From IMG/VR virus record IMGVR_UViG_3300024255_001563, positions 1 through 64,000 of that record: a stretch of DNA of 64,000 nucleotides; one strand, written 5' to 3'. A program made the translations under genes and the position numbers. This document shows positions 8,762-25,545 of the stretch, one piece after another. The stretch comes from a virus (taxonomy: Duplodnaviria; Caudoviricetes). The notes beneath the pieces are model-generated. The model was not told where the DNA came from and searched no databases. It saw only the letters and a list, made by a program, of their open reading frames with translations. Numbering within the stretch: the first letter of the stretch is position 1; the number at the start of each line of letters is the position of its first letter.

Positions 8762-8909
8762 TTTTTTCTGGCGCTTTCTTTTTCTTTGAACCAAATGTAT
8801 ATTCAATATTTTCAGTAATAGCACCTGACTCGCAAACAGTAATTTTATTATTTTCTAGCCACTGCTCGATTAATTTTTTATCTTTGTTGTCTATTAGTTC
8901 TCTAGCCAT
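8751..8909 (-). CDS. 52-aa hypothetical protein (MARELIDNKDKKLIEQWLENNKITVCESGA...)
   Basis: Not in the ORF track; translated by hand. Fills the gap between kdsB and the gp62-like gene with overlaps at both ends. Confidence 0.65.
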   Translation of the reverse strand: MARELIDNKDKKLIEQWLENNKITVCESGAITENIEYTFGSKKKKAPEKNAK

Positions 8910-9567
8910 TGTTTTGTTTCCACCTTTCTAAATCTTGTGGAGTGTTTATTTCAATACCGTTAAAATCAACTTCTGTTACTCCTATTGTAACATCGTTTTG
9001 TATCCAGCGCAACTGTTCAAGTTGTTCTTTTTCTTCTTCTTTGTATTTTTTTAAATTTCTATAGGTTGCTATTTCTTCTAGTCTATAACCATAAACACCT
9101 AAATGATGATCTCCGTATTCCAGTGGGGCTCTGCAAAACCAGTGTGCAGTATCTCCATTATGAATCATCTTAACACTATTAGGATCTTGTTGATTTTCCT
9201 TAGACATTTTCGTGTATGCAGTCGAAACTGAATAATCGTCTAGTTTTTGCTCAACAGCTTTTATGATATCTAAAGTAATATCTGGCATATCTCCTTGCAC
9301 ATTTATTATTTTTGTAGCCGTTACTTGAGAGCCATCAGTAGCAATCGAAATGCGTTCAGTTCCATTTTCCGCTGGCTGGGTAAAAAAGCATAACGGAGAC
9401 TGATTTAGTACTTTTCTACTATCTGAAACTATATATGACGGATATCCAAATGATTGACATTTTTCCCATACATTCCTAATTAAGGTTTTTCCATTAAGGT
9501 CTGCTAACATTTTTTCAGGAAAGCGTGTGCTTTCTAGTCTAGCAGGAATTAATATTATTGTGCTCAT
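8902..9567 (-). CDS. kdsB: CMP-Kdo synthetase (3-deoxy-manno-octulosonate cytidylyltransferase)
   Basis: IPARLESTRFPEKML, NGTERI, INVQGD, DPNSVK, HHLGVYGY, LEQLRW and EINTPQDL motifs. Confidence 0.92.
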   Translation of the reverse strand: MSTIILIPARLESTRFPEKMLADLNGKTLIRNVWEKCQSFGYPSYIVSDSRKVLNQSPLCFFTQPAENGTERISIATDGSQVTATKIINVQGDMPDITLDIIKAVEQKLDDYSVSTAYTKMSKENQQDPNSVKMIHNGDTAHWFCRAPLEYGDHHLGVYGYRLEEIATYRNLKKYKEEEKEQLEQLRWIQNDVTIGVTEVDFNGIEINTPQDLERWKQNNG

Positions 9568-9579
9568 AAATTTTTCCCT

Positions 9580-10377
9580 TCATAATTCAATAGTTGTTAT
9601 TTCTTGTATTGTATATTGGTGTGCAATAATATCTCTAACAACTCCTTCAAAGTCTTCTAGTTTAAGCATGTTGGGACCATCGCTAGGTGCGTTGTCTGGA
9701 TCAGCATGTACTTCTATAAAGAAGTTGTTAATGCCCATAGCAGAGGCAGCACGAGCAAGACCTGGAACGTAATCACGATTACCGCCACTCGATTCCCCAT
9801 TGCCTCCTGGCTTTTGGACAGCGTGGGTAACATCAAAAACACAAGGTACATCGTAATTGTCAAGCATATACTGAAGCCCAGTAAAATCAACAACCAAAGT
9901 ATTATATCCAAAACTAGTACCTCTTTCTGTTATCCAAACTTCTTTAGCATCTTCTGTTTTTGAAAGGATACCTTTTACATCCCACGGTGCTAGGAACTGA
10001 CCTTTCTTAATATTAACAATCTTATCTGTATCACAGGCTGCTTGAATAAGATCTGTTTGTCTGCACAAGAACGCAGGAATCTGATAGACATCAACTGCAT
10101 CCTTAAACTGTCGTTCAATACGTCTAACCTGTACTGCGTCATGTACGTCTGTTAGCGTCTTTACGCCTAGCAATACTTTTAGTGCTAAAAAGTCTGTAAG
10201 CGTTGCTTCCATGCCTGCGCCACGTTTGCCTTTGATACTACTACGATTGGCTTTGTCAAAACTTGCTTTGAAGTAATACTCAATTCCATACTTGTCACAT
10301 ACACGTTTACACTCACGTGCAATCTCGCTAGACTGTGCTAGTGTTTCGTGCTGACATGGTCCTGCTATTATTCTCAT
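9580..10377 (-). CDS. kdsA: Kdo-8-phosphate synthase
   Basis: IAGPC, FKASFDKANRSS, QIPAFLCRQTDL, NIKKGQFLAP, ERGTSFGY, DVTHAVQKPG and IEVHADPDNAPSDG motifs. Confidence 0.95.
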   Translation of the reverse strand: MRIIAGPCQHETLAQSSEIARECKRVCDKYGIEYYFKASFDKANRSSIKGKRGAGMEATLTDFLALKVLLGVKTLTDVHDAVQVRRIERQFKDAVDVYQIPAFLCRQTDLIQAACDTDKIVNIKKGQFLAPWDVKGILSKTEDAKEVWITERGTSFGYNTLVVDFTGLQYMLDNYDVPCVFDVTHAVQKPGGNGESSGGNRDYVPGLARAASAMGINNFFIEVHADPDNAPSDGPNMLKLEDFEGVVRDIIAHQYTIQEITTIEL

Positions 10378-10386
10378 TTTTCTTCC

Positions 10387-10551
10387 TTAATAAAATACTA
10401 CCCACAGAATTAAAAGTATAACTGCCCATCCAAATATACCTAATCCATTGTTTCCAACTAAGCCTCTGCTTCTAGCACAGCTATAACAGTATCTATATTT
10501 TGCACTGCATTTATTACTACAAAAAAATGCATCGCATGTCTTTTTACTCAT
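10387..10551 (-). CDS. Small Cys-rich protein with a C-terminal TM helix
   Basis: C-x4-C-x3-C...C-x2-C followed by a hydrophobic tail; TAATG overlap with metK. Confidence 0.55.
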   Translation of the reverse strand: MSKKTCDAFFCSNKCSAKYRYCYSCARSRGLVGNNGLGIFGWAVILLILWVVFY

Positions 10552-11642
10552 TACCAGCCTATACTTTCCCATGGTACATCGTTGTCACCAAAGTGTCCAT
10601 ATGTACAATTTTCACTATAGTTAGTATAACTGAATAATCCAAATCTGTCAATGATTCCTTTTGGGGTCAGGTCAATTTCACGTTCGATAAACTTAGCAAT
10701 ACTAGCATTGTGTCCGTTTGAATCAACATAGATACTTGTAGGTTCTTTGACACCGATAGCATAGCTCAACTGGATATTGCACCAGTCTGCCATATTGTCT
10801 GCTACTACATTCTTGGCGAGCCATCGTGCCATGTAGGCGGCACTTCTGTCGACTTTGGTGGGATCTTTGCCACTAAACGCACCGCCACCATGAGGAGCAA
10901 AACCCCCATAAGTATCAACAATAATTTTCCGCCCAGTAACACCTGCATCACCGTCAGGACCACCAATAACGAAATTTCCAGTAGGGTTAAGATGCCATGT
11001 AGTTCTTTCATCGACTAAGTCTCCTAATTCTTCCATTGCGGCAAGTTTACAAAGATGCCTTGCTTCTTCTACGTTGCCTTCTGTGTGCTGTGTACTTATC
11101 ACAACTTGATCAATACGTTTGATCACACCGTCACGTCTAGCACCATAGTATTCTACGCTTACTTGACTCTTAGCATCTGGTCCTAGTATAGCACCACGTT
11201 TGCTTTTTAAGTTCTTTAGTATCTCATGGCTGTAATGGATAGGTGCTGGCATCATACTGGGTGTATGATTACAGGCATATCCGAACATCAAGCCTTGATC
11301 TCCTGCACCAAAATCGTCTGTGCCTAATGCAATGTCTCCACTTTGTGCGTGGATCTCATTATAGATACGCAAGTTGTCCCAGTGAAACCCATCTTGCTCA
11401 TAGCCAATTTCTTTGACTTTATTACGTACTATCTCTTTAACTTGATCTCCAGTTACGTTAAAGTTTTTTACTTCGCCTGCTAGTGTAACCATATTAGTAG
11501 TTACAAGCGTTTCAATAGCTACACGAGTTGTTTCATCGCCATTAGCAAGTCCGGCATCTACTAGTGCATCACTAATTTGGTCTGCAACCTTGTCAGGATG
11601 CCCGTCACTTACACTTTCGCTTGTAAAAATATAGTTGTTCAT
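10551..11642 (-). CDS. metK: S-adenosylmethionine synthetase
   Basis: FTSESVSDGHPDK, GAGDQG, DAKSQV, GRKIIVDTYGG and GGGAFSGKDPTKVDRS motifs. Confidence 0.96.
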   Translation of the reverse strand: MNNYIFTSESVSDGHPDKVADQISDALVDAGLANGDETTRVAIETLVTTNMVTLAGEVKNFNVTGDQVKEIVRNKVKEIGYEQDGFHWDNLRIYNEIHAQSGDIALGTDDFGAGDQGLMFGYACNHTPSMMPAPIHYSHEILKNLKSKRGAILGPDAKSQVSVEYYGARRDGVIKRIDQVVISTQHTEGNVEEARHLCKLAAMEELGDLVDERTTWHLNPTGNFVIGGPDGDAGVTGRKIIVDTYGGFAPHGGGAFSGKDPTKVDRSAAYMARWLAKNVVADNMADWCNIQLSYAIGVKEPTSIYVDSNGHNASIAKFIEREIDLTPKGIIDRFGLFSYTNYSENCTYGHFGDNDVPWESIGW

Positions 11643-11896
11643 TTGTTATCCTTTACCATGTAATAGGTTGTTACTAGCTTGTCCATTAATTTTTTTAGTG
11701 TAGTATTTTGTGTTGCTAACTGACACATGTTCTGCCATTCGCCATAGTCTAATAGCTCTCCTTGCGCTCTTGCAACAGCACCTGGATCTCCGCCTATAAT
11801 CCAACGAGGTATCTCAGGCTTGTCTCGATAATGAGCGTAAACAACACCGTTGCTACGCTCATATATCAATACTTCATTTGGAATCAAATTTCCCAA
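11639..11896 (-). CDS. Hypothetical protein
   Basis: 85-aa ORF with a TTG start; LIYERSNGVVYA motif typical of small phage proteins. Confidence 0.65.
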   Translation of the reverse strand: MGNLIPNEVLIYERSNGVVYAHYRDKPEIPRWIIGGDPGAVARAQGELLDYGEWQNMCQLATQNTTLKKLMDKLVTTYYMVKDNK

Positions 11897-11897
11897 A

Positions 11898-12557: not shown

Positions 12558-12591
12558 TCTACTTCTTCTTTCTTGTTACGGTGTCTAGTAT

Positions 12592-12675
12592 TCAACGAAC
12601 AATGTCGTTGTGGTTATTCGAACCAGTGTATTTAGAAGCGACACCATCTTCTAAATTCTTAAACTGGTGAATTTT
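12592..12675 (-). pseudogene. Decayed duplicate of the 3' end of the cupin gene 13244..13597
   Basis: Reads KIHQFKNLEDGVA-SKYTGSN-NHNDIVR* against KIHQFEGLEDGVA-FELYWAEF-NHDDIVRR in the intact gene; no start codon. Confidence 0.75.
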
Positions 12676-12677: not shown

Positions 12678-13244
12678 TTACTCATTCAAATTCTCATTTA
12701 TACGTTTATAATCTACTTCGTTAAAACTTGTATTAAAACTAATAATTGTTTTACGTGTATCTGATTCTAGCATAGGGGATCTATGTATATAATGACCTGG
12801 AAATGTAAGTAAGCAACCTTCAGTGACGCCTTCAATTTCAATAATTTTATTTTTCTGAATATCGTAAAGTTGGGTTGCATAATTACCTTTAGGCAATTCT
12901 AAAAAATATACATTAGAAAAATTACAACTATGATGATTATGCCAACTATGAAAATCATTTTTTGTATACTGCTGAAACCAAAAGCCATGTATATAGTACT
13001 CAATAAATCCTAACTTATTTCCTAGTTCAGCAACATAAGGAGTTATAAGATTACGAAAATTATGTTCGTATACTCTTTTTACAGTATCGTCTCTACGATA
13101 ATCAAAATTACTAATGTTTTCAAAATCTGATTTAGATTGCTCAATTGACATCATAGAAATGTCAGTTAATATAACATCTTTATAATCAATATGTTTTACA
13201 ACATCATTGATATAATAATAATCAGATAATGGAAACACTTTCAT
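12678..13244 (-). CDS. 2OG-Fe(II) oxygenase (TIGR02466-like)
   Basis: WFQQY...HSWHNH..NFSNVYF, LLTFPGHYIH, RKTIISFN; visibly AT-richer than its flanks. Confidence 0.8.
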   Translation of the reverse strand: MKVFPLSDYYYINDVVKHIDYKDVILTDISMMSIEQSKSDFENISNFDYRRDDTVKRVYEHNFRNLITPYVAELGNKLGFIEYYIHGFWFQQYTKNDFHSWHNHHSCNFSNVYFLELPKGNYATQLYDIQKNKIIEIEGVTEGCLLTFPGHYIHRSPMLESDTRKTIISFNTSFNEVDYKRINENLNE

Positions 13245-13597
13245 TATTTTACTTCTGTGCCACTTGTACGTCTTACAATATCATCGTGATTAAACTCAGC
13301 CCAGTATAGTTCAAATGCTACACCGTCTTCGAGTCCTTCGAACTGATGAATCTTGCCTGGCTTAACTTGTGTAAAGTCGCCTGCGTTTAGAATAGTTTCA
13401 TCAACTAGTCCTTGGTCATCTTGCCATACACGCACAAGCATCTGTCCTGACTCTACATAAAAGCCATTCCATTTAAATTGATGTTCGTGTTCCGAGCATT
13501 TGTAACCTTTATTGAATTCAATGCGATGAAACTCTAATGCTCCGTTTGCATGAATCAACTCTGTGTTACCCCAAATTTTTCCTGCTTTAATTCCCAT
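13244..13597 (-). CDS. Cupin-fold protein (sugar isomerase-like)
   Basis: KIWG, CSEHEH.FKWNGFYVESG, VKPGKIHQF; start MGIKAG at 13597. Confidence 0.75.
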   Translation of the reverse strand: MGIKAGKIWGNTELIHANGALEFHRIEFNKGYKCSEHEHQFKWNGFYVESGQMLVRVWQDDQGLVDETILNAGDFTQVKPGKIHQFEGLEDGVAFELYWAEFNHDDIVRRTSGTEVK

Positions 13598-13611
13598 ATT
13601 ATTTCCTTTCT

Positions 13612-14118
13612 CTAAATTAAAAGTGAGTATTCTATAACTTCGCACTGTCTACTAATTTCTTTAATAAAATATGCGCACAAAGGTTTCTCGCCTGTTGTAA
13701 TAGGTACAGTAAGTAATTGTCCGTTTTTTACTTTCGGAAAGTACCATTTTACGTCAGAATAAAAATTTACAATTTTTAATTCTTTAAATTCTGTTTTATA
13801 ACTAGTCATCGGGTTAAACAAGAAGGCTTCGAACCCTCTATCATTTAAACTAGTTAATGGTAATATTTCTAAATCATTTCCACTTTCGCTACATCCTACA
13901 GCTACACTCCAATCAACTGGCATTGTAATTTCATGACCGTCTATCTCTAGTACCATCGCCGGTGCGCTAAATGATTCTAAAAAGATCAAAGGAATAAAGA
14001 AGAAATCTGGTTCTTTAGGATTACTATTATCAAGAACAGAAAATCTTATATCGTCGTCTATTTGTTCAGGTAAATCATCTAACTCAAAGCATTTATTTTC
14101 TAATGTTAATATTCTCAT
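13612..14118 (-). CDS. Conserved-type phage hypothetical protein, possibly a degenerate HINT fold
   Basis: Directly downstream of uvsW; beta-rich pattern resembles intein blocks but lacks the catalytic residues. Confidence 0.55.
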   Translation of the reverse strand: MRILTLENKCFELDDLPEQIDDDIRFSVLDNSNPKEPDFFFIPLIFLESFSAPAMVLEIDGHEITMPVDWSVAVGCSESGNDLEILPLTSLNDRGFEAFLFNPMTSYKTEFKELKIVNFYSDVKWYFPKVKNGQLLTVPITTGEKPLCAYFIKEISRQCEVIEYSLLI

Positions 14119-14121
14119 ATA

Positions 14122-16768: not shown

Positions 16769-16773
16769 ACTAT

Positions 16774-16802
16774 AAGATAACTTATAATAGCATATTTGTC
16801 AA
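16774..16802 (-). promoter_or_regulatory. Sigma70-type promoter (probably leaderless)
   Basis: TTGACA-N17-TATCTT, then 5 nt to the ATG at 16768. Confidence 0.55.
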
Positions 16803-17636
16803 TCTATTTAATGGCAATCCGGCAGATATTTCTTCAACGGTAAACTCTGTCCATGCGTAGTCATTCAGCCATTGTGTTCTATCCGGCATTAGAGGCTGTT
16901 CAATATCATGTAAGAAATTAATGTCATTGCCTGCAGGGTAAGCAAGACTGTGGGTACTAACAAAAGCAGGCACACCCTCGATGATACTATGTATTCCCGG
17001 GTTACTCGAATAACTGATAGTAGCCCATATATTATTAAAACCCATGTCAAAATCATCGTAAGTGCCGTTAACATGTCGAGGCTCCTGTCTGTATACGTGT
17101 TTAAGACCACGTTCTATATGTTCTAATCTACAACGTGGATGTGGTCTAAATATTATAGGGCGGTCTGTGTGTTTGCGTATTTCGTCATAGGTGTTTAAGA
17201 ACCAATTGCTTATACTTGACATGCCTTGCCATTGTAAACTTTTGTTGTGCTGACCGCATATGAGAATATGTTTTCCGTCTGTGCGCCATTTCTTTGTTGA
17301 TAATCCTAATGAAAGTGCTCTATCATTAGTGCTATTGCCATCACCAAAATAAGCATCTCTATTAATTCCATTTAACCCTACCTTCCACGTTGTACCTCGT
17401 TTTATTCCGCCGACTTCTAGTACAATAACTTTACGACCTGTTTTTGTATAATAGTCCCAGATAGGCTTGTTGCCAGTCATGCGCCCGTTAAATAACACAC
17501 TCCATATTACAGCAACATCGGCATGCATATCACTTTCAGTTACAATATGTCCTGCGTTACGAAGACTTTTTTCAAAAGCTTCAAAAACAGGCTTGCTATT
17601 CATTGCACCATATTCTTTGAATAAACTAAATCTCAT
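16782..17636 (-). CDS. KpsS/KpsC (GT107)-like capsule-biosynthesis glycosyltransferase paralog 1
   Basis: ILICGQ, IIFRPHP, ISYSSNPGIHSIIEGVP, DRTQWLNDYAWTEFT motifs. Confidence 0.7.
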   Translation of the reverse strand: MRFSLFKEYGAMNSKPVFEAFEKSLRNAGHIVTESDMHADVAVIWSVLFNGRMTGNKPIWDYYTKTGRKVIVLEVGGIKRGTTWKVGLNGINRDAYFGDGNSTNDRALSLGLSTKKWRTDGKHILICGQHNKSLQWQGMSSISNWFLNTYDEIRKHTDRPIIFRPHPRCRLEHIERGLKHVYRQEPRHVNGTYDDFDMGFNNIWATISYSSNPGIHSIIEGVPAFVSTHSLAYPAGNDINFLHDIEQPLMPDRTQWLNDYAWTEFTVEEISAGLPLNRLTNMLL

Positions 17637-17638
17637 TG

Positions 17639-17661
17639 TTAAATACTCCAGTAGTATTTAC
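17639..17661. promoter_or_regulatory. Overlapping face-to-face late-type promoters
   Basis: TAAATACT-ccagt-AGTATTTA inverted repeat gives TTAAATA on + and GTAAATA on - between two divergent GT genes. Confidence 0.6.
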
Positions 17662-17673
17662 AAAGGATTCAAC

Positions 17674-18516
17674 ATGACTAACATAACTGTGGTTACAACT
17701 TTTCACAAGCCGGGACTTAACTTATACGGCCAACGTTTTTTAAATTCGTTTGCTGAAAAAGTAGATTCTAAAATTAAATTACTTGTATACGCAGAAGATT
17801 GTTCGCCTGTAAATCCTAATTCAGAACAGATAACAATACTCGATGCTAAAGAAGTTTTACCAAAACTAAATGCATTTAAAGAAAAATATAAAAATGTTCC
17901 ACATGCAAATGGAAATATTGCAAAGCATCCTGCACGTAATGGACGTAAAGACTGGAATAAAGAATTTAAATGGGACGCTGTAAGATTTGCTAATAAAACC
18001 TATGCTGTGTATGATGCATGCGAACGCAGCGAAGATTGGTGTGTGTGGATGGATGCAGATACGTTTGTACACAGCGAATGGTCATATGAACAATTTAAAC
18101 ATCTGCTTCCAGAAGATAAATGGATAACATATGTAGGTAGAGGCAAAGGATCACAAACATGGCCAGAGTGTGGCTTTTATGGAATGAACCTAAATCATCC
18201 GGTGTGTCATCAGTTTCTTAAAGAGTTTGAACGTATGTACGAAGATGCAGAAAACGGCATTTTTAAATTAGTTGAATGGCACGATAGTTTTGTATTTGGA
18301 CATCTATTAAAAAATTTAAAACCAGTTAGTAATAATGTACTCGACTATAGTGCAGAAATGTATCTTAAAGAAGCAAAATCAGGTGGCGGTGGACATCCTT
18401 TAATTAATACAATTTTAGGTAAATGGATCGATCATATGAAGGGTGATCGTAAAAATACAGGCAAGTCTAAAGCATCCGATATTATGGTTAACAGAAAAGA
18501 GAGTTACTGGAAGTAA
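17674..18516 (+). CDS. GT-A fold glycosyltransferase
   Basis: VVTTF, RFANKTYA, VWMDADT (DxD), ECGFYGMN, EWHDSFVF, DHMKG; start MTNIT at 17674 with AAGGA upstream. Confidence 0.75.
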   Translation: MTNITVVTTFHKPGLNLYGQRFLNSFAEKVDSKIKLLVYAEDCSPVNPNSEQITILDAKEVLPKLNAFKEKYKNVPHANGNIAKHPARNGRKDWNKEFKWDAVRFANKTYAVYDACERSEDWCVWMDADTFVHSEWSYEQFKHLLPEDKWITYVGRGKGSQTWPECGFYGMNLNHPVCHQFLKEFERMYEDAENGIFKLVEWHDSFVFGHLLKNLKPVSNNVLDYSAEMYLKEAKSGGGGHPLINTILGKWIDHMKGDRKNTGKSKASDIMVNRKESYWK

Positions 18517-18544
18517 TTACTATTAGGAAATCTTACTGTATTCA

Positions 18545-19372
18545 TTATGCATCCTTTTTGTATATTTTTTGATTGTCAGTACACCATACAGGTATATTTA
18601 CTCTTTCTGAAATTTGCTTAGCCTGCTTTGGATCGCTTTCTATATACATTAGCATATTGTTTGAGTTAATTATATTTGCCTTATACACCCCGTGCTTGAT
18701 GTTCGAATCTATTTTCATTATTAGTTTTTCGTATTGTATATTATGACGCTTTAACCAATCGGTTGTAACATCTCTATATTTTTCTAATCTACTTGTAATA
18801 ACAAATTTTACAGGCCGTTCTGGTAAAAATTTAGGCTCTGCTCTATGATAAAAGTCTAATAGCTTAGGTCCTTTATCATTTTCTTTTTTACTAGGATCTC
18901 TACACAGAACTCCATCCATGTCAGTACCAAATCTACCTAACTTATGATGCTTCCATAAGTTCCACTGGAAAACTCTAGGACGAGGACAAAAATCTGCACA
19001 TAAATCTATTTCTGATAAATTTGTTTTATCAGAATACCAAACTGCAAACTTTATTAATTCGTCTTCGATATTTGCTGCCTTAATCAAAGATATTGATTTT
19101 TTAAAACTAGAACCAGTATTAATACTATCGTCTACTAACAACACTCTATTTTTTGCTTTTAAATCTATTCGTTTGCCGCTTGTGCCTGAGGCTTGTCTAT
19201 TAATATATGTTTGTAAATCTGCATATGGCAATTGCAAGTGTAAGGCAATAAATGCCGCCGGTGCTATTCCTGATCGAGGAATACCAACAACTAAATCTAT
19301 ATCGTATTGTCTTATTTTATCTAAAACATTAACAATACTAACATTCATATCTTCAAAAGATCTAAAATTCAT
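18545..19372 (-). CDS. Phosphoribosyltransferase-HAD phosphatase fusion
   Basis: N-domain VVGIPRSG and PRPP loop VLLVDDSINTGSS; C-domain DMDGVL (HAD motif I), ITSR, K and YIESD. Confidence 0.8.
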   Translation of the reverse strand: MNFRSFEDMNVSIVNVLDKIRQYDIDLVVGIPRSGIAPAAFIALHLQLPYADLQTYINRQASGTSGKRIDLKAKNRVLLVDDSINTGSSFKKSISLIKAANIEDELIKFAVWYSDKTNLSEIDLCADFCPRPRVFQWNLWKHHKLGRFGTDMDGVLCRDPSKKENDKGPKLLDFYHRAEPKFLPERPVKFVITSRLEKYRDVTTDWLKRHNIQYEKLIMKIDSNIKHGVYKANIINSNNMLMYIESDPKQAKQISERVNIPVWCTDNQKIYKKDA

Positions 19373-19950
19373 TTAGTACCAATAATTCCCATGTTAATCC
19401 AACCATGTCTGTTACGCAATCTATTTTGATCCATGGTCATTTGCTTAACATTTTTTAAACCTGCATTCCTAAAACACTGTTGTAAAAATTTAGGTGTAAG
19501 TAATGCCCTGTGAAGCTGGTAATCAAAATCATCTTCTGGATTTATACAATAATTATATAATTTTCCTACTAACCATAAGTAAGGATCTTGGTTGGTTAAT
19601 TCTTTTCGCCAATTAACTTTTAATTTTTTTGTAGTTTGGCCAGTGTTTTCGTAATGTATTATTTCTTTCATTACATCTAATCCATTTACAGTCCAAACCT
19701 CAAGAGTACCGCCTGGGTTGATTACTCTAGCCCATTCAGATATAGTTGACTGCACTTGATACCAATGAACATGTTCTATACAGTGAGAAGAATATACACA
19801 ATCAAATTCACCGTCTTTAAATCTCGACAAGTCTCTTGCATCACCTTGATGATCTGATTTGCCACCATCTGATTTTAATTTATCTCCTAAATTAAAAGTT
19901 TCAAAACCTTCAACCTTCATTTTACCAGGACCTATTTCTAATCCTCTCAT
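19369..19950 (-). CDS. SAM-dependent methyltransferase (Methyltransf_11-like)
   Basis: LEIGPG, GDARDL, FDCVYSSHCIEH, RVINPGG motifs. Confidence 0.85.
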   Translation of the reverse strand: MRGLEIGPGKMKVEGFETFNLGDKLKSDGGKSDHQGDARDLSRFKDGEFDCVYSSHCIEHVHWYQVQSTISEWARVINPGGTLEVWTVNGLDVMKEIIHYENTGQTTKKLKVNWRKELTNQDPYLWLVGKLYNYCINPEDDFDYQLHRALLTPKFLQQCFRNAGLKNVKQMTMDQNRLRNRHGWINMGIIGTK

Positions 19951-20804
19951 TTGTTTTCCTTTTTTAATTTATATTCATTACTAAAAAATTCGGGATACTG
20001 ATAGAATAATGTTTCTAGTTCAGGATCTAACCGTATATGCTTTCCCATTAAATTAGCTTTTTGTTTTGCTTTTCTATATACGCTATTCCAATCTTGTATA
20101 GTAGTAACGCTTTGTGCAATTTGTGCGTAACTTTTACTTATTTTTTTCTCCCAGTTTCTAGTATCTTTAATACTTTTTAATTTTGCTTCTCTAGCTTCGT
20201 TAGATCCAAAATAACTAAAATGCCAACCGTTTTCGATTGGATGTAATCTAAAATATACTTTATGTTTTATATATTTAAATTTACCATGGCTCATAGGCCT
20301 TTCTTCAGGTAATCGATCTAATGTTGTAAATCTAGAGCCTCCCCAACCTCCATATCGTGCCATCCAGTCTACAAATACTATCCTATATTCTTGCCAACAA
20401 ACAACATAGTTATGTTGGTCCACTGCGGCTAGTATGTCTGTTAATCGTCTTTTATCCCAAAATTCGTCAAGATCATTATAAGCAAAATAAGCATTTTTAT
20501 CTATAGTCCTTGCTTCGTAGACAAGGCTATCTCTCATTTTGTTTTGTACTAATTTTTGTTTCCAACTTGCTTCATTAAGCCATTCATTAGGATGATCGAT
20601 AATACGATGATGAATTTTTTCTTGAATTTCTTGTGATAGATGAGGCCAAACATTTTCCATAAAGTTAGGAGTATTTCTTGTGCCTCTCCACGTATGTGTA
20701 CTTTCTAATATCACAAAATGATCAACAACATCTGCATAATAATTTAATCTTATTTTACATAAGTCGGCTTCATTAAAGTAGCAAAAAGAATCTATTAATT
20801 TCAT
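19947..20804 (-). CDS. GT17-like (beta-1,4-GlcNAc transferase-like) glycosyltransferase
   Basis: IDSF.YFNE.DL, VDHFVILES..T, Q...R, DLDE, GWHFSY; start MKLID at 20804. Confidence 0.8.
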   Translation of the reverse strand: MKLIDSFCYFNEADLCKIRLNYYADVVDHFVILESTHTWRGTRNTPNFMENVWPHLSQEIQEKIHHRIIDHPNEWLNEASWKQKLVQNKMRDSLVYEARTIDKNAYFAYNDLDEFWDKRRLTDILAAVDQHNYVVCWQEYRIVFVDWMARYGGWGGSRFTTLDRLPEERPMSHGKFKYIKHKVYFRLHPIENGWHFSYFGSNEAREAKLKSIKDTRNWEKKISKSYAQIAQSVTTIQDWNSVYRKAKQKANLMGKHIRLDPELETLFYQYPEFFSNEYKLKKENK

Positions 20805-21721
20805 ATGTATTTCCTTATATGCGCCCAAGCTTCCCCAGATCTCAGTTCTTTAAAATTCCAATGACTCATTGAAATTTTTTCAATCCATTGTTGTCTATCA
20901 GGCATTAAAGGATTTTCTATTTTTTTTAATTTTGTATTTGCAATTTCAAAAGCTTGACTATTTTCGGCATTTGTATCTAATACAAATACAGGAATGCCTT
21001 CTATAGCAGCAGCTACTCCAGGACTACTATTATATGTTATAACACACCAAGCATCTTTTAAATCATCTGTAATGTTTGGAGTAAAACTTGTTTTAACATT
21101 AGGATAATTTAATTTTAAATATTGTACTGCACGTTTATCGCCCGGATGTGCTCTAACTACAATAGGTCTATCTGTCACTGCTTGAATTCTTGCAATTACA
21201 TTTTTGCACCAGCTCATTACATCTAAGCCTTGCATACTCCAGCCACCGTTTCTTTGTAAGCATATTACTATATGATTACCTTTTGTACGCCAGTCTTTTA
21301 GTGAAAGCTTTAGGGTTTGGCTGATACTTTTCCATCTATTAGGATCAGGATCATCCCAAAAATAATTACCAGTAGTAGGAAAGACACCGTTACTACTATA
21401 TCTAAGATAATGATTACTATTACCAGGATCTGCATATAAAAATAAATTACTATCAATAATAATAGCATGTCTTCTATTTGCAATTTGTTTATCAATCACT
21501 TCTCTACGTAATTTTAAATGCGGACTATTAGGACTAGAACTATGTACAAATCCTTGTATTACTCCAGCATGACTCTTTGACCAACGGCGTTGCTCTGATG
21601 CAACACCTAAATCTCCATACTTAGTTACTCCTTCTGCAAAAAATTTTAAAACATCAATTTTTTCTTTATTTTTTGCGTTAGGAATTCCTTTAAGATATGT
21701 AATTACTGTTTTCTTAGTCAT
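20801..21721 (-). CDS. KpsS/GT107-like paralog 2
   Basis: IVICLQ, IVVRAHP, ITYNSSPGVAAAIEGIP, DRQQWIEKISMSHW motifs. Confidence 0.7.
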   Translation of the reverse strand: MTKKTVITYLKGIPNAKNKEKIDVLKFFAEGVTKYGDLGVASEQRRWSKSHAGVIQGFVHSSSPNSPHLKLRREVIDKQIANRRHAIIIDSNLFLYADPGNSNHYLRYSSNGVFPTTGNYFWDDPDPNRWKSISQTLKLSLKDWRTKGNHIVICLQRNGGWSMQGLDVMSWCKNVIARIQAVTDRPIVVRAHPGDKRAVQYLKLNYPNVKTSFTPNITDDLKDAWCVITYNSSPGVAAAIEGIPVFVLDTNAENSQAFEIANTKLKKIENPLMPDRQQWIEKISMSHWNFKELRSGEAWAHIRKYI

Positions 21722-22724
21722 TGTCGTCCTGTGATGATTCTAATATTTCATTTACTGATTCTTTTAAATGTGCCCAACATTCTCCTGATTCCATTTCTTC
21801 AGGTGTCCATTGACAGTATGCAAGATTATTTAACCATTGTTGAACTTGAGGTTCTGTTGCTAATTGCATGTTTTCTACATTTGCTAATTTTCTTTCTCCG
21901 ATATTCCAAGCAAAGTTACCTTCGTCACATGCAATTACCGGAATACCCTGAAGAGCAGCATCAATACTTAATCCACTTGTATATGCTACAACACAATATG
22001 CATTTTGTAATTGATTTTCCCAAGGATGTGCTTTTCCGTTTGTAAACGATATATTTTTATAATTATTAAACATAAAATGTCTAAAAAGCTCATCATGATC
22101 TGCCCATCCTTTTTCGCTTACTGCCGGATGTGTTCTTATTTCAATAGGCCTATCAGTATTTGCTCTTAACGTGCTAACTGTATCTTTTACCCATTGATTA
22201 ATATCGTTATTTCTTAAACTTGCATCACCACCAAGTTGCATAGCAATTACTATAGGACCTTCGGATTTATTATTCCATCCTTTGTAATGAATGCCTAGTT
22301 TGTCTAACCGATCACCTTTATGATCAACGTCTGGACCCCAGATAGCATCTCTATTTAAAAAGCCATTAATTCCGACTCGTTGATGTGTATTTGGTTTGAG
22401 TACCCGTCTATTTAACAGAGGTGTTTCTATACAAATAAAACAATTTGATTTTTCAACAATAGAAGATCTACATACGTGATGTATATTAGATCGTTGAGGT
22501 TTCCAACTGCCAAACATAACTCCAACATCGCATTTTGAATATTTTTCACCATACTCGTACTCAACGCCTGTTCCTCTGCCATTAGCTTTATTAACAGCTC
22601 TGATATATCGTAATTCTCTTTTACTAGAAGGAATTAGATCAGATGCAATGCCGTTGTGCATATTTCTTAGTACTTCTCTTTCATGATTATGACCTGCTGT
22701 CATCATGAATGTTTTAACTTTCAT
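21714..22724 (-). CDS. KpsS/GT107-like paralog 3 (retains QxxxD and HP)
   Basis: IAMQLGGDASL, IEIRTHP, VVAYTSGLSIDAALQGIP, WLNNLAYCQW motifs. Confidence 0.75.
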   Translation of the reverse strand: MKVKTFMMTAGHNHEREVLRNMHNGIASDLIPSSKRELRYIRAVNKANGRGTGVEYEYGEKYSKCDVGVMFGSWKPQRSNIHHVCRSSIVEKSNCFICIETPLLNRRVLKPNTHQRVGINGFLNRDAIWGPDVDHKGDRLDKLGIHYKGWNNKSEGPIVIAMQLGGDASLRNNDINQWVKDTVSTLRANTDRPIEIRTHPAVSEKGWADHDELFRHFMFNNYKNISFTNGKAHPWENQLQNAYCVVAYTSGLSIDAALQGIPVIACDEGNFAWNIGERKLANVENMQLATEPQVQQWLNNLAYCQWTPEEMESGECWAHLKESVNEILESSQDDND

Positions 22725-23484
22725 TTAATAATCTCCATGCTGTTCCATCTTTAAATTCTTCAATATGAAATTGTCCGTATGCAAGATGACAAGCCCATTT
22801 ATATATTTTATCTTTATCCTGTAGTGTGGGAGTTTCAATTAGGCTTAAATCTTTGTCGCAGACAGGGTCTGCTGCTGTCGGTGCCATCGAAAATGCCGGT
22901 ACACCATATAGCACACTTTCAACTGCTGCAATACTTTGATAAGTTACAAGTGCATGACAATATCTTAAATCATCAAATATAGTGTTCTTTATACGTTCTG
23001 GTCTTGTTGCTTTATCTCTAACTTTGATAGGTCTATCGGTATATTTTCTTATTTCTTCTATAGTTTTAGTTACCCATTCATTTCGTGATATACCGTAAAA
23101 CTTACAAGGCTTGTCTGAAGGTGTTACTAATAAAATATGTCTACCTTGTTTTAGATTTTCTATAGGGTACTGTAATTTTTTCCATCTATCATCCGGTCTT
23201 TCTATTATTCGTTCATGTTGTATATTATTTTTTACAATTCTATGCCAGTTCTTCCATCCTAATGGATTAATTGCTGATTTATAGTTGCCAACATATCCGC
23301 TGTCCATATAATAAAATGTATGATTATTCTTTAAGCACCATTGTATAAGTTTACGTTTTCCCATACTACGTATCATTATAGGATTGTTTTTAAAGTCATA
23401 TGAATAATTTTCTATAGGTAAGTTTGCCCCTTGTGCAAACATATTGACGTATTCGTCTGTTTTATGTTTACTTAGGCATATCAA
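22714..23484 (-). CDS. KpsS/GT107-like paralog 4 (divergent)
   Basis: YMDSGY, LLVTPSD, IKVRDK (no HP), VTYQSIAAVESVLYGVP, WACHLAYGQF motifs. Confidence 0.65.
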   Translation of the reverse strand: MICLSKHKTDEYVNMFAQGANLPIENYSYDFKNNPIMIRSMGKRKLIQWCLKNNHTFYYMDSGYVGNYKSAINPLGWKNWHRIVKNNIQHERIIERPDDRWKKLQYPIENLKQGRHILLVTPSDKPCKFYGISRNEWVTKTIEEIRKYTDRPIKVRDKATRPERIKNTIFDDLRYCHALVTYQSIAAVESVLYGVPAFSMAPTAADPVCDKDLSLIETPTLQDKDKIYKWACHLAYGQFHIEEFKDGTAWRLLNES

Positions 23485-24113
23485 AACTTATATCCAAATG
23501 TTTCTAAATCTTCTTTAAATAATTCTGTAACTATATTACGTGTTTTATCATTATAATATTCTCTATAATGTTTATGCTTGCTTTTATTAAGATGAGGCAA
23601 ATCTATTTTACATTTAAAAATATCTTCTAAATGATGTAAGCTACTATTAATCTCTTCTAATTTAATTACTATATCTACTCTATGTTCTAGCCAATGGACC
23701 ATAGGAGTTTTTCTTTTATATAACCAGATACCTAAATCAAATGGATTTTTTATATCTGCACTATGTTCGACTATCCAATTTTCAAAGCCTTTATTATAAT
23801 ACTCTGCTATTAAGATATCGTCTTCTTGATTAGTACTTTTCTTAGTGCGTAAACCTTGTTTGCGCATCTCAATTCTTTCTAGTGCTCTCTGACCAATGAA
23901 ATGATATAAACTAATTATCCTTGCATAAGGATTTCTAACAAAACTAAAAGTTGTACCTAGATTATTCCACACAGATTCTGCATCTGTTATTGTACAGTGT
24001 TTCTGTTGTCTATCGTGATTTATATTATCATAAACCCATTGTTCAAAACTACTGCCGCCTGTTTTAGGAATATGTATAAATGTTGCCTTAGGATTTTTAA
24101 AATGTATTGCCAT
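23481..24113 (-). CDS. Sulfotransferase family 2 (carbohydrate sulfotransferase-like)
   Basis: 5'-PSB FIHIPKTGGSSF, 3'-PB SFVRNPYARIISLY, C-terminal FKEDLETFGYKF; start MAIHF at 24113. Confidence 0.85.
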   Translation of the reverse strand: MAIHFKNPKATFIHIPKTGGSSFEQWVYDNINHDRQQKHCTITDAESVWNNLGTTFSFVRNPYARIISLYHFIGQRALERIEMRKQGLRTKKSTNQEDDILIAEYYNKGFENWIVEHSADIKNPFDLGIWLYKRKTPMVHWLEHRVDIVIKLEEINSSLHHLEDIFKCKIDLPHLNKSKHKHYREYYNDKTRNIVTELFKEDLETFGYKF

Positions 24114-24115
24114 AA

Positions 24116-24787
24116 TTAATTCATCATAATAAATAATTCTTGTTTCCACAATTCGTTAAATTCACAATCTCTGTAGTTTTCAAACCACGGTCCGCCTTCG
24201 GTGTAGTGTATTAAGTTTGGTGTTTCAATGTCATCATACACACCTACTAGATAGTTCCATGTATGATCTAATTCGCCAATCTCTTCATCTTTGAGCCAAC
24301 TAAAGCGATGTAAGTATGCTCCATTAATCTCAGGATCATTTACTAAATCTTGTGTAAGTTTAGCATTACTAGGATGGCCGCAGTTAAACAGCATCACACT
24401 TGACCAATTTTTACGTGGATAGATTGTTTGCTTTTGACCATCCATCTTCATACCTTCTTTAGGTGTATAATCATGTTGCACACACATAACAGCGTACTTG
24501 TCATCTGCTTGGTCAAATAATTCTTTAATGTCTGTAGTAAGAATCATGTCACAATCCATAAACACTGCCCAACCTTTGAAGTTAGCAAGTTCTGGTATTA
24601 AAAAACGTGTAAATGTAAATTCTGTACTTGCAAGTTTGTCTATGGGACGTTTATACCATCCTGCATCACGTAGTTCCTGTTGTTTTAGAGGACGCACATC
24701 TGCTTCAGGCTGTTTAGTTAATATACTGTGTTTGCACACTTGATATGCAATATCTTCTCTTGTGTCATAACCTACAAATATTTTCAT
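24116..24787 (-). CDS. GT8-like glycosyltransferase
   Basis: IFVGYD.RE, STEFTFTRF, FMDCD, YPRKNWSSVMLFN, WNYLVG, HYTEGGPW motifs. Confidence 0.8.
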   Translation of the reverse strand: MKIFVGYDTREDIAYQVCKHSILTKQPEADVRPLKQQELRDAGWYKRPIDKLASTEFTFTRFLIPELANFKGWAVFMDCDMILTTDIKELFDQADDKYAVMCVQHDYTPKEGMKMDGQKQTIYPRKNWSSVMLFNCGHPSNAKLTQDLVNDPEINGAYLHRFSWLKDEEIGELDHTWNYLVGVYDDIETPNLIHYTEGGPWFENYRDCEFNELWKQELFIMMN

Positions 24788-25545
24788 TAATCTCTTCTTT
24801 CTATATCGTCTTCGGTGAGCTCATTACCTAACCACACTTCTATTACTTTTGCACTCTTAGTATCTAGATTCACAGCCTTATGCCAATAGCCTGTTGGAAT
24901 GTCTATACTGTCTCCAGGAGTTAATAATGTAGTAGTTTGATGACCAGACTTGTCTTCTAAGAACATATTAATTACGCCATCAACTACATGCCAATGTTCG
25001 CTGCGTTTAAAGTGTCTTTGATCACTTAATGCATGTCCTTCATAGAATTCAAGTTGTTTAACTTGCCAGCCTGAGCCGTTATCTAGTATAGTGTATTTGC
25101 CCCATGCACGTTCAGTAGTAGGCTGACTCCATTCTTTAAGTATCCAACTACTTGAATTCTTTTTATCTTCCCCACCTACACCAAATACAAATTCTACATT
25201 AGTATATTGCATTTCGGGTATATTAGACTTTGTTCTATCTCCGCCATTAGCAAAGATAATTTTTGTACTTGCCCCTGATGTGCTTTGTAATTGAAATATT
25301 GCATGATTAGCAGTATTGTCAGAATCGTTAAATCCAATAACTTGATCAACACACGCAAGTTCTTTAATGATTGCGCAGCGTTCTTCAAAGGGCATAAACG
25401 GTCTACCCTTCTTGCGTGTTAACCATTCGTCACTGTTTACTCCGACAACTAGTTTATCGCCTAACTTTTTTGCTGCTTTAAAATATGCAATGTGTCCGCT
25501 GTGTAGTGGATCGAAGCCACCTGTTACTAATACTGTGTTGCTCAT
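24787..25545 (-). CDS. RfaE-like cytidylyl/nucleotidyltransferase fused to a ManC/PMI-type cupin
   Basis: VTGGFDPLHSGH, GVNSDEWL.RKKG, FANGGDR, SSSWIL; C-terminal ERAWG, SDQRH..RSEHW, IPTGYWH; start MSNTV at 25545. Confidence 0.85.
   Translation of the reverse strand: MSNTVLVTGGFDPLHSGHIAYFKAAKKLGDKLVVGVNSDEWLTRKKGRPFMPFEERCAIIKELACVDQVIGFNDSDNTANHAIFQLQSTSGASTKIIFANGGDRTKSNIPEMQYTNVEFVFGVGGEDKKNSSSWILKEWSQPTTERAWGKYTILDNGSGWQVKQLEFYEGHALSDQRHFKRSEHWHVVDGVINMFLEDKSGHQTTTLLTPGDSIDIPTGYWHKAVNLDTKSAKVIEVWLGNELTEDDIERRD

Follow-up and report, generated by a model that had tools for sequence, protein, structure and literature searches.

Retaining beta-Kdo transferases are defined by two motifs, QxxxD and HP, and one such enzyme, the E. 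coli K13/K20/K23 capsule synthase KrkA, carries, joined to its Kdo transferase, a phosphoribosyltransferase acting on glycans as well as a HAD phosphoribosyl-phosphatase (PMC12887879). Among phages, kdsA and kdsB of S-SCSM2R have been described as the first in a cyanophage (PMC12801897), and Pyle et al. reported DNA sugar-hypermodification clusters whose glycosyltransferases (GTs) come from LPS-type enzymes and of which one product was assigned as Kdo on 5hmC (bioRxiv 10.1101/2023.12.21.572611). Virion glycosylation is known from mycobacteriophages (Freeman et al., 2023, as cited in PMC12619734), and giant viruses encode glycan machineries of their own (PMC9614988).

Here we analyze a 64-kb stretch of DNA (the window), the first part of a 200,843-bp viral record. 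The record encodes UvsW, UvsY, UvsX, a DnaB-like helicase, a primase and a T4-type terminase, which identify its source as a phage; this is a marine jumbo phage, uncultured, whose replication genes are of the T4 type. The record is ~57% complete. A sequence-only reading of the window had proposed a Kdo-glycan assembly line with sulfation, methylation and ribosylation, and every gene that it named was recovered in place. Our analysis supports a model in which the phage encodes here an island for glycan assembly, where soluble KpsC-fold transferases and a CMP-Kdo supply probably yield, within the cytoplasm, an acidic oligosaccharide that contains Kdo. Genes of the island lie on the minus strand unless noted otherwise.

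CMP-Kdo supply

Three genes of the window bear on donor synthesis:

8902..9567, minus strand: kdsB-like CMP-Kdo synthetase, 221 aa (CTP_transf_3, 1.6e-19)
9580..10377, minus strand: kdsA, Kdo-8-phosphate synthase, 265 aa (NF003543, TIGR01362)
13244..13645, minus strand: small cupin, 133 aa (Cupin_2, 9.9e-8), syntenic with kdsA

KdsA is assigned at the equivalog level, with 332.4 bits against NF003543 (cut-off 242) and 316.8 bits against TIGR01362 (cut-off 314) in NCBIfam. All 13 matches of KdsB to solved structures are CMP-Kdo synthetases (best 3.7e-23), and its five best NCBIfam matches are all KdsB models, although under their cut-offs (152.9 vs 193 bits). IMG/VR contigs hold at least 266 related kdsA copies; kdsB adjoins kdsA in 71 related loci, with a median gap of 24 bp, and the small cupin lies no more than 3.3 kb from kdsA in 77 loci. 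KdsC and KdsD, which the sequence-only reading did not see in the window, are also absent from the entire 200-kb record. The Atlas clusters closest to the small cupin are viral cupins, some with phosphomannose isomerase (PMI) or D-lyxose isomerase families, making it a candidate sugar-phosphate isomerase that could stand in for KdsD.

Four paralogs with a Kdo-transferase fold

Four proteins that had been read as KpsS-like share 21–30% pairwise identity:

16782..17636, minus strand: P1, C-type Kdo-transferase-fold protein (motifs QHNKS and RPHP; family profile 304 bits)
20801..21721, minus strand: P2, B-type (motifs QRNGG and RAHP; AF2 model)
21714..22724, minus strand: P3, A-type (motifs QLGGD and RTHP)
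22714..23484, minus strand: P4, D-type (RDKA in place of the His-Pro motif; family profile 214 bits)

None of the four matches Pfam or PHROG, and sequence comparison with PF05159 and all solved Kdo transferases gave nothing significant. When an AF2 model of P2 (pLDDT 96.4) was searched against the PDB with Foldseek, retaining beta-Kdo transferases occupied ranks 1–24 (E ~3e-7 to 4e-6). An exhaustive aligner (VIA) run over 48,161 chains placed KpsC (two chains), WbbB and KrkA at Z scores of 14.5, 14.0, 13.2 and 12.2, with the next fold at 10.9, and among Swiss-Prot models FixF, LipA, LipB, KpsS, LpsZ and KpsC filled ranks 1–8. The best PDB match of a family profile built from 129 sequences is likewise KpsC, at a non-significant E of 0.12, with KpsC QVESD and HP aligned to the family QxxxD and (K/R)xHP. 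In our model the paralogs form a phage family that is new and shares the fold of KpsC, WbbB and KrkA. Their assignment to GT107 is not upheld by sequence, and the catalytic Asp of QxxxD is present in only one of the four. The proposal that CMP-Kdo supply sits beside transferases of the KpsC/KpsS/WbbB fold is borne out by the equivalog-level KdsA, the CMP-Kdo synthetase matches of KdsB and these fold searches.

Only P3 has both QxxxD and RxHP complete. P1 and P2 retain the Gln and RxHP, with Ser (P1) or Gly (P2) replacing the Asp nucleophile, and P4 lacks Gln, Asp and His-Pro altogether. All four types are nonetheless conserved subfamilies with a common set of invariant positions (Arg, Ser, Gly-x-Pro and acidic residues); the B and C types (51 and 58 sequences) show strict conservation of Gln and RxHP, and the D-type also occurs in Pelagibacter phage Mosig. 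Of the four, P1 shows the most constant linkage to kdsA/kdsB, and it is the sole paralog in some relatives that bear them. P3 is found in ~10 of ~150 related loci and is missing from most relatives that retain kdsA/kdsB. With three of four paralogs lacking the Asp and P3 mostly missing, Kdo transfer, if any, would usually proceed by a mechanism unlike the known one.

Other enzymes of the island

The remaining features comprise a core and a set of accessories:

7190..7621, minus strand: P-loop kinase, 143 aa (APS_kinase, 9.3e-8, 32.7 bits)
10551..11642, minus strand: metK, SAM synthetase (all three S-AdoMet_synt domains)
17637..17673, no strand: divergent intergenic region, 37 bp (palindrome TAAATACT..AGTATTTA, read directly)
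17674..18516, plus strand: 280-aa conserved protein, possibly GT-A-like (Glycos_transf_2, E 0.026, sub-threshold; DAD motif)
18545..19372, minus strand: fusion of an N-terminal phosphoribosyltransferase (PRTase) and a C-terminal HAD phosphatase (Pribosyltran, 8.5e-14; invariant DxDGV)
19369..19950, minus strand: class I SAM methyltransferase, 193 aa (Methyltransf_11, 9.2e-11)
19947..20828, minus strand: GT17-like glycosyltransferase, accessory (Glyco_transf_17, 3.3e-11, 43.3 bits, cut-off 26)
23481..24149, minus strand: carbohydrate-type sulfotransferase, accessory (Sulfotransfer_2, 1.7e-10)
24116..24787, minus strand: GT8-like glycosyltransferase, core (Glyco_transf_8, 1.1e-6, 28.8 bits, cut-off 24.3)
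24787..25581, minus strand: fusion of a cytidylyl/adenylyl-transferase and a PMI-type cupin, core (CTP_transf_like, 7.1e-17; MannoseP_isomer, 3.6e-20)

In ~150 related viral contigs the genes run in a conserved order, kdsB-kdsA...uvsW-[transferase island]-uvsY, and the core set is present in every one of the 65 loci reaching from uvsW to uvsY. Among the 30 C-type-paralog loci with at least 7.5 kb of downstream sequence, kdsA and kdsB each occur in 28, so that the co-occurrence with the GTs expected by the sequence-only reading is indeed found in loci with enough flank. Within the lineage this synteny is inherited and so is not independent evidence of coupling.

The GT8-like gene is shared by all 65 complete islands, a distant lineage (L090) and cyanophage S-SCSM2R. 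The 280-aa protein is present in the same 65 islands and in L090; its earlier designation as a GT-A enzyme is weak, given the sub-threshold GT2 match and the lack of any match in the PDB or PHROG. The nucleotidyltransferase-cupin resembles RfaE domain II, its PDB matches are phospho-alcohol cytidylyltransferases, and it probably makes a second activated donor.

The genes proposed for sulfation, methylation and ribosylation pass Pfam cut-offs, like metK, the GT17- and GT8-like genes and the nucleotidyltransferase-cupin gene, but they are strain-variable accessories outside the conserved core: the PRTase-HAD and methyltransferase, sulfotransferase, GT17-like and P3 genes all vary among relatives, with the sulfotransferase in ~15 and the GT17-like gene in few, and metK is a variable accessory carried by a minority. 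The sulfotransferase matches a galactose-3-O-sulfotransferase in PHROG (1.6e-15). Supply of its presumed donor PAPS is doubtful: the 143-aa kinase aligns with the APS kinase model over its N-terminal P-loop half only (residues 3–83) and scores 28 bits against NCBIfam apsK (cut-off 138.7), and ATP sulfurylase was not found. The best PDB match of this kinase is a probable APS kinase (3.9e-7); in relatives it travels with an NMNAT-like neighbor, and its membership in the pathway is doubtful. Profile matches of the PRTase-HAD fusion are to purine PRTases and the Pnkp1 phosphatase domain, and the folds nearest to its model (pLDDT 96.6) are again purine PRTases. The methyltransferase is paired with it in every other context examined, the pair turns up again next to GT genes elsewhere, and the cassette is missing from nearly all relatives. 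The fusion gene is real, but ribosylation is a suggestion from domain logic and neighborhood, made against the closer likeness to purine PRTases.

Acceptor and alternative explanations

No island enzyme has a transmembrane segment, and no flippase, ABC-2 permease, ABC ATPase or exporter was found across the 200-kb record, in which the sole multi-TM ORF is a Vut_1 transporter; the absence of an exporter or flippase reported for the window thus extends to the record. In the late/lysis module of CcrColossus, a cultured Caulobacter phage, a 1665-aa tail protein is followed by two members of the family, which favors a virion acceptor. Phage structural proteins are, tentatively, the most likely acceptor; against this, the genes next to the transferases in the window include no Thr-rich or otherwise obvious acceptor. 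Late motifs at 17639–17661 had been taken to favor a virion acceptor. The TAAATA letters are present, at 17640–17645 (plus) and 17659–17654 (minus), and form a palindrome, but they make a weak argument: this form differs from the one enriched before the phage's structural genes (TTAAATA 2-fold and GTAAATA 3.3-fold, vs ATAAATA 19-fold), and the canonical T4 late motif is rarer than expected by chance.

Rather unlikely, in our assessment, is a role in remodeling the host envelope, where the genes would act as auxiliary metabolism, raising CMP-Kdo and adding or altering a Kdo glycolipid, LPS core or capsule primer through host lipid acceptors and export, so as to exclude superinfecting phages or evade grazers. 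The closest characterized fold relatives, KpsC and KpsS, do work on a membrane lipid acceptor, LPS cores typically involve GT8-like enzymes, the host would provide KdsC, KdsD and exporters, and the sole published comment on phage kdsA/kdsB calls them cell-wall modification genes (PMC12801897). However, the island enzymes all lack a membrane anchor, the record encodes none of the transport components listed above, a lytic jumbo phage is short of time for exporting a new polymer, and the CcrColossus family members sit in a tail/lysis module.

It is quite improbable that the association is coincidental, with kdsA/kdsB as stand-alone metabolic genes, paralogs that use other donors or are non-catalytic, and no Kdo glycan made by the island. 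The Asp is absent from three of four paralogs and the CMP-binding HP from one, and uvsW stands between kdsA/kdsB and the transferases in this lineage. The two gene sets also occur apart: the 462-kb phage LR756500 has kdsA/kdsB but no paralog detectable up to 20 kb away from kdsA on each side, S-SCSM2R has kdsA/kdsB but no detectable KpsC-fold paralog over the 30.7 kb that surround kdsA, and CcrColossus and Mosig carry paralogs without a phage kdsA. The last two are no contradiction, because their hosts are Gram-negative and expected to make their own CMP-Kdo. Against coincidence, the sets are contiguous in L090 (kdsA 47% identical), where kdsB, cupin, kdsA, three paralogs, the 280-aa protein and GT8 follow one another on one strand with no unrelated gene intervening and the cupin directly between kdsB and kdsA; the strict conservation of Gln and RxHP in the B and C types argues likewise.

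Decoration of a modified phage base with Kdo-containing glycans, as protection from restriction, is very improbable: the island does lie inside the replication/recombination module (uvsW to uvsY), its soluble enzymes come with no exporter, and reports exist of a phage GT that places a putative Kdo on 5hmC and of DNA glycans with up to three sugars (bioRxiv 10.1101/2023.12.21.572611), but that enzyme is T4 beta-GT-like, not KpsC-like, at least seven transferase-like genes, with a carbohydrate sulfotransferase besides, go beyond any known DNA glycan, and the 200-kb record lacks a thymidylate-synthase-type hydroxymethylase/hydroxylase, a TET/JBP dioxygenase and a C5 DNA methyltransferase, an absence that is not final given the record's incompleteness.

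Proposed model of glycan assembly

CMP-Kdo genes, Kdo-transferase-shaped enzymes and tailoring enzymes together make it very probable that the phage builds its own acidic sugar chain; gene identities, fold, motif states, synteny, co-occurrence and the lack of an exporter are the observations on which the following scheme is built. KdsA would join PEP and arabinose-5-phosphate, a host or phage enzyme would remove the phosphate, and KdsB would form CMP-Kdo. Soluble transferases would then use it, with Kdo as the presumed transferred sugar: one has the full retaining-Kdo-transferase active site, two retain the Kdo-carboxylate Gln and CMP-binding RxHP without the Asp nucleophile, and the fourth has none of these elements; the nucleophile-less copies are presumably active. 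Completed by the GT8-like enzyme, the 280-aa protein and the nucleotidyltransferase-cupin as source of the second donor, the core would jointly assemble the acidic, Kdo-containing oligosaccharide in the cytoplasm. Strain-variable cassettes may then attach sulfate and a further sugar of GT17 type to it, and probably also a ribose that comes from PRPP and is possibly methylated.

Comparison with known systems

As in the window, the mycobacteriophage and giant-virus systems employ viral GTs, which there coat capsid, tail or fibril proteins; as described, they use other GT families and other sugars, with no Kdo and no comparable donor-synthesis genes. Mycobacteriophage virions are glycosylated, whereas the window phage is known here from its genes alone. 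The clusters of Pyle et al. are defined by a cytosine methyltransferase and a TET-like dioxygenase, neither of which was found in our record, and their Kdo enzyme resembles T4 beta-GT, in contrast to the KpsC-fold paralogs.

S-SCSM2R is closer in gene content, with kdsA 40%, kdsB 33% and an adjoining GT8-like gene 50% identical to those of the window; its kdsA/kdsB were read only as host cell-wall modification genes (PMC12801897). KrkA offers, in principle, the same three activities, with PRTase then HAD in the same N-to-C order. In the window, however, they reside on separate small proteins, the PRTase is nearest to purine PRTases, and the cassette is rare in relatives.

From KpsC, WbbB and KrkA the window paralogs differ in having no significant sequence similarity, in their size (~260–340 aa) and single-module, soluble architecture, and in the loss of the Asp nucleophile in three of four subtypes and of Gln and His-Pro in one; compared with KpsC/KpsS they are phage-encoded and come without kps export genes. 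What they have in common with KpsC/KpsS (GT107), the N-terminal module of WbbB (GT99) and KrkA (GT140) is a modified GT-B fold, the QxxxD and (K/R)xHP motifs of retaining beta-Kdo transferases at aligned positions of the family consensus, both present in P3, and, with the KpsC/WbbB/KrkA group, a setting beside CMP-Kdo donor genes.

Genome setting

The window covers the opening 64 kb of an IMG/VR virus record of 200,843 bp, rated ~57% complete by CheckV. It encodes a DnaB-like helicase, primase, UvsW, UvsY, UvsX, and a T4-type large terminase closest to those of jumbo myophages, among them Pseudomonas phage PA5oct (54% identity); nearly every gene between 1 and 41.4 kb lies on the minus strand. 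Seawater and marine metagenomes, as well as one study labelled freshwater, contain near-identical DNA, and 19 metagenome runs contain at least half of the record's sampled words. Megablast comparison of the entire region with 50,697 phage records gave zero matches. The replication genes, the terminase affinity, and the metagenome sources thus identify the source as a jumbo phage, uncultured and mainly marine, that carries T4-like replication genes. The genes considered here include an island of transferase and tailoring genes between uvsW and uvsY.

Genes discussed (window coordinates)
1978-3480, minus strand: NodU/CmcH-type carbamoyltransferase (Carbam_trans_C, 4.7e-50), flanked by the DnaB-like helicase and primase
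6793-7621, minus strand: overlapping pair, NMNAT-like protein (146 aa) and P-loop kinase (143 aa), co-travelling in relatives
8902-9567: kdsB
9580-10377: kdsA
11898-12557, minus strand: Vut_1/YhhQ-type transporter, the sole multi-TM ORF in the 200-kb record
13244-13645: small cupin
15572-16768, minus strand: 398-aa protein, no family found, always between uvsW and the C-type paralog
16782-17636: P1, C-type paralog
17674-18516, plus strand: 280-aa protein
18545-19372: PRTase-HAD fusion (PRT-HAD)
19369-19950: methyltransferase
19947-20828: GT17-like protein
20801-21721: P2, B-type paralog
21714-22724: P3, A-type paralog
22714-23484: P4, D-type paralog
23481-24149: sulfotransferase
24116-24787: GT8-like protein
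24787-25581: nucleotidyltransferase-cupin (NT-cupin)

The carbamoyltransferase could be a further tailoring enzyme acting by O-carbamoylation of a sugar or base. The 398-aa protein evolves fast, with 23-46% identity among relatives and 97% in a near-identical contig.

CMP-Kdo supply

KdsA exceeds the equivalog cut-offs of both NF003543 (332.4 bits, cut-off 242) and TIGR01362 (316.8 bits, cut-off 314) and scores at most 70 bits against DAHP synthase models. The five best NCBIfam matches of KdsB are all KdsB models, yet they stay under cut-off (152.9 vs 193 bits); all 13 of its PDB matches are CMP-Kdo synthetases (best 3.7e-23), with no CMP-NeuAc or CMP-Pse synthetase among them. Pfam gathering scores are passed by metK, Vut_1, the 2OG oxygenase, the small cupin, the PRTase, the class I methyltransferase, the GT17-like protein, Sulfotransfer_2, the GT8-like protein, and the cytidylyltransferase-like/PMI-cupin fusion; the sulfotransferase belongs to a PHROG named galactose-3-O-sulfotransferase. 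The gene inventory of the sequence-only reading is thus confirmed by Pfam, NCBIfam, and PDB profile matches. It has two weak items, the P-loop protein at 7190-7621, listed there as an APS kinase, and the plus-strand 280-aa protein, listed there as a GT-A enzyme, which carries a DAD motif but has only a sub-threshold GT2 match; PDB and PHROG searches with this protein gave no match. Neither KdsC nor an SIS-type KdsD was found in the 200-kb record of this ~57% complete genome.

Four paralogs on a Kdo-transferase scaffold

P1-P4 are 21-30% identical to one another, making them paralogs, and no further paralog was found in the 200-kb record. None has a Pfam (E up to 10) or PHROG assignment. With PF05159 (Capsule_synth), neither a search of the record (E limit 1) nor one of the four proteins (E limit 10) gave a match, and weak contact was limited to 5 of 129 family members. 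Searched against the PDB, a four-sequence profile returned chance matches to NDUFA2 only. A 129-sequence profile placed KpsC first (E 0.12) and WbbB next (E about 1), neither being significant; its alignment superposed the family's Q-x-x-x-D-x-S and R-x-H-P on QVESDAS and HP of KpsC. The family comprises 3,450 proteins in a word-indexed search and 4,777 clusters at 50% identity in an exhaustive one, is almost wholly unannotated, and is mostly viral.

The AlphaFold model of P2 (306 aa; pLDDT 96.4, pTM 0.92) matched WbbB, KpsC, or KrkA at every one of ranks 1-24 in a Foldseek search of the PDB. An exhaustive aligner other than Foldseek (VIA) gave Z scores of 14.5-12.2 for four WbbB/KpsC/KrkA representatives and at most 10.9 for generic GT-B proteins, and the best eight matches among Swiss-Prot models were FixF, LipA, LipB, KpsS, LpsZ, and KpsC. 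At the level of the model, these comparisons settle the fold of P2 as the modified GT-B fold common to WbbB, KpsC, and KrkA; P1, P3, and P4 are assigned to it via their 21-30% identity and the common profile. The term KpsS-like, applied earlier to these proteins, holds for the predicted fold but not for sequence, where matches to PF05159 and characterised members are not significant.

Active-site states

Retaining beta-Kdo transferases (GT99/GT107/GT140) are defined by two motifs: QXXXD, with an absolutely conserved Asp as covalent nucleophile and a Gln that holds the carboxylate of Kdo, and (K/R)XHP, the binding site for CMP (PMC12887879). The four paralogs differ at both positions.

Motif states of the paralogs
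P1, C-type: QHNKS and RPHP
P2, B-type: QRNGG and RAHP
P3, A-type: QLGGD and RTHP
P4, D-type: PSDKP and RDKA

Only P3 has QXXXD, and it is the sole paralog with both motifs; P1 and P2 keep the Gln and RxHP and have lost the Asp, and P4 has neither motif. The same states recur in 14 A-type, 51 B-type, 58 C-type, and 53 D-type sequences of relatives, and an Arg, a Ser, a Gly-x-Pro, and an acidic residue of the N-domain are invariant across all four subtypes. That the paralogs are products of decay was rejected, every motif state being a conserved subfamily in relatives. Fold match and motif states thus place the paralogs on a Kdo-transferase scaffold. Taken together, however, they fall short of one defining feature of retaining Kdo transferases, the QXXXD motif. 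By motif content, one of the four, P3, is the canonical predicted catalyst, and most paralogs must, on the same reading of their active sites, act via another mechanism or another donor. Natural variants without the catalytic Asp therefore make the family a ready-made test of how the scaffold works.

Co-occurrence with kdsA and kdsB

With the window's KdsA as query, at least 266 viral contigs were found, of which 80 with 75-94% identity were kept. Gene order in these relatives runs phrog_11058, hypothetical, kdsB, kdsA, a variable slot (metK/Vut_1/2OG), cupin, hypothetical, and uvsW; then the 398-aa protein, C-type, the 280-aa protein, a second variable slot, B-type, an occasional A-type, and D-type; and finally an occasional sulfotransferase, GT8, NT-cupin, uvsY, and uvsX. 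With the C-type paralog as query, kdsA and kdsB were each present in 28 of the 30 loci whose downstream sequence extends for 7.5 kb or more. The core was complete in all 65 loci spanning uvsW to uvsY, with islands of 7.7-13.3 kb. Since synteny in these relatives reflects descent, it is weak evidence of functional coupling. An independent case is L090, a related viral locus from a divergent lineage, whose kdsA is only 47% identical to that of the window and whose three paralogs comprise one in the Q+HP state and two without.

Compact module of L090
2807-9741, one strand: contiguous kdsB, cupin, kdsA, three paralogs, homolog of the 280-aa protein, and GT8

Co-occurrence of kdsA/kdsB with the glycosyltransferase (GT) block in relatives, set beforehand as a test, is borne out by the 28 loci, the invariant core, and the L090 block. 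No paralog was detectable near kdsA/kdsB in cyanophage S-SCSM2R, whose GT8-like gene shares 50% identity with that of the window, or in a 462-kb phage; Pelagibacter phage Mosig and Caulobacter phage CcrColossus carry paralogs and no phage kdsA. The proposal that phage CMP-Kdo supply is tied to a new phage family with a Kdo-transferase fold and to further tailoring enzymes is partly supported.

Matches to kdsA in 'Acinetobacter phage MD-2021a' (CAKLQF020000008.1, CAKLQH020000043.1) were discarded: with pyrG-kdsA-eno and a pca operon, these records are bacterial chromosome, so kdsA there is not phage-borne.

Variable tailoring cassettes

PRT-HAD with the methyltransferase, GT17, the sulfotransferase, metK, and a complete A-type paralog are each carried by few relatives. 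In metagenome run X2, contigs of a co-occurring strain (window 21455-24609) join B-type to D-type with no A-type gene between them, and D-type to GT8 with no sulfotransferase between them; more than one form of the island is present in a single sample. A metagenome joint skipping 12.2 kb (13597 to 25827) was distrusted, as it occurs in one contig with a 30-base side. The sulfation, methylation, and ribosylation proposed for the glycan thus stand as genes present in the window but are strain-variable and limited to few relatives.

PRT-HAD contains a Pribosyltran domain (residues 22-137) and an invariant D151-x-D153-G-V, and its C-terminal part matches the Pnkp1 phosphatase domain profile (2.9e-5). 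The order of modules, a PRPP-type PRTase followed by a HAD phosphatase, is like that of polysaccharide ribofuranosyltransferases, whereas the PRTase domain is closest in sequence and fold to purine PRTases. Both the top 50 Foldseek hits and the leading profile matches were purine, xanthine, or orotate PRTases, and none was a glycan PRTase (Bcs3, Klebsiella O7, or the C-terminal part of KrkA). The methyltransferase/PRT-HAD pair, found in the window and in the related loci L159 and L173, adjoins GT genes in three contexts.

Two-gene methyltransferase/PRT-HAD cassettes in related loci
L172, 5441-7574
L173, 5466-6873

In L173 the pair directly follows uvsY; in one contig its neighbour is a GT2-like gene, and a gene for an HK97-fold capsid protein is found within a few kb.

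The gene neighbourhood favours a glycan role for PRT-HAD. With module order and GT neighbourhoods on one side and a purine-like PRTase domain on the other, the earlier ribosylation claim is retained as plausible, at roughly even odds.

PAPS supply

The P-loop protein at 7190-7621, read earlier as an APS kinase that might supply PAPS, aligns over residues 3-83 of its 143 aa to positions 5-91 of the 152-position APS kinase model. It scores 28.1 bits against TIGR00455 (cut-off 138.7), short of a full-length APS kinase (CysC), and ATP sulfurylase and CysD are absent from the 200-kb record. In relatives the kinase travels with its NMNAT-like neighbour, and a NadR-like NAD-salvage pair explains 6793-7621 no less well than an APS kinase. 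Given the half-model match and the missing ATP sulfurylase, PAPS supply by the phage is doubtful.

Promoter motifs and expression

A scan of the island for sigma-70 promoters and terminators gave no excess over shuffles. With 3 copies in the window where 13 are expected, the motif TATAAATA is rarer than chance. Across the whole record, the 50-base stretches preceding start codons show a 19-fold enrichment of ATAAATA, often as GATAAATA. Most of the genes so marked are large structural ones, and the motif frequently sits just 4-15 bases from the ATG; to judge by this distribution, it is probably the late-promoter core of the phage.

Genes preceded by ATAAATA (examples)
29237-31426
34131-34688
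42204-42959
51639-52823

The site at 17640-17659, unlike these, is a TTAAATA/GTAAATA palindrome, forms that are weakly enriched. Late motifs there had been used to argue for a virion acceptor; given the scarcity of TATAAATA and the non-ATAAATA site, this argument does not hold in the form given, and thus no inference on timing is drawn for the island. A cDNA-labelled seawater library yielded short contigs on metK, Vut_1, uvsW, PRT-HAD, and the A/D-type junction; because the library is probably DNA-contaminated and consists of contigs only, they are not taken as expression evidence.

Candidate acceptors

The observation that the window holds no exporter extends to the 200-kb record (~57% complete): searches for an ABC-2 permease (ABC2_membrane) and an SIS domain found nothing, no ABC ATPase (ABC_tran) match rose above noise, and Vut_1 was the only multi-TM ORF; the island enzymes have no TM segment. 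This fits a cytoplasmic acceptor, or reliance on host export. As to DNA, a putative Kdo-on-5hmC product was reported for another phage GT (bioRxiv 10.1101/2023.12.21.572611); a search of the 200-kb record, ~57% of the genome, for prerequisites of DNA glycosylation (ThyA homolog, TET/JBP, C5-MTase) found none. Decoration of virion proteins is addressed by CcrColossus, which carries two family members.

Family members in CcrColossus
gp125-gp131: region containing gp127 (Q+HP, B-like) and gp128 (no HP)

These two genes follow those for a 1665-aa tail protein and a sialyltransferase-like protein and precede the lysis cassette, in a late/lysis module. This arrangement favours virion decoration for the family. 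In the window, the transferases have no Thr-rich ORF as a neighbour.

Discussion

The sugar Kdo is considered a hallmark of Gram-negative envelopes and capsules, and a family of ~4,800 clusters (50% identity) would extend Kdo-transferase-fold enzymes to viruses. In a joint reading that we consider unlikely as a whole, widespread marine jumbo phages would coat virion proteins with an acidic, strain-variable Kdo glycan made wholly by the virus, in some strains with added sulfate, ribose, and methyl groups; the B- and C-types would form a new class of CMP-Kdo transferases on the GT99/GT107 scaffold, for example inverting and making alpha-Kdo, and the small cupin near kdsA would be a non-SIS arabinose-5-phosphate isomerase replacing KdsD. 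If the virion is the acceptor, abundant marine phages would have charged, strain-variable glycan coats, with a bearing on host recognition, grazing, aggregation, and carbon export. Cultured carriers offer tractable systems: CcrColossus and relatives on Caulobacter, and Mosig on Pelagibacter.

The group 2 capsule (kps) system combines the KpsM/KpsT exporter, KpsE/KpsD, and KpsF (A5P isomerase), a set not found in the 200-kb record of this ~57% complete genome. The variable cassettes between uvsW and uvsY, with sulfate, ribose/methyl, and extra GT genes, resemble a serotype-style hypervariable locus in a virus.
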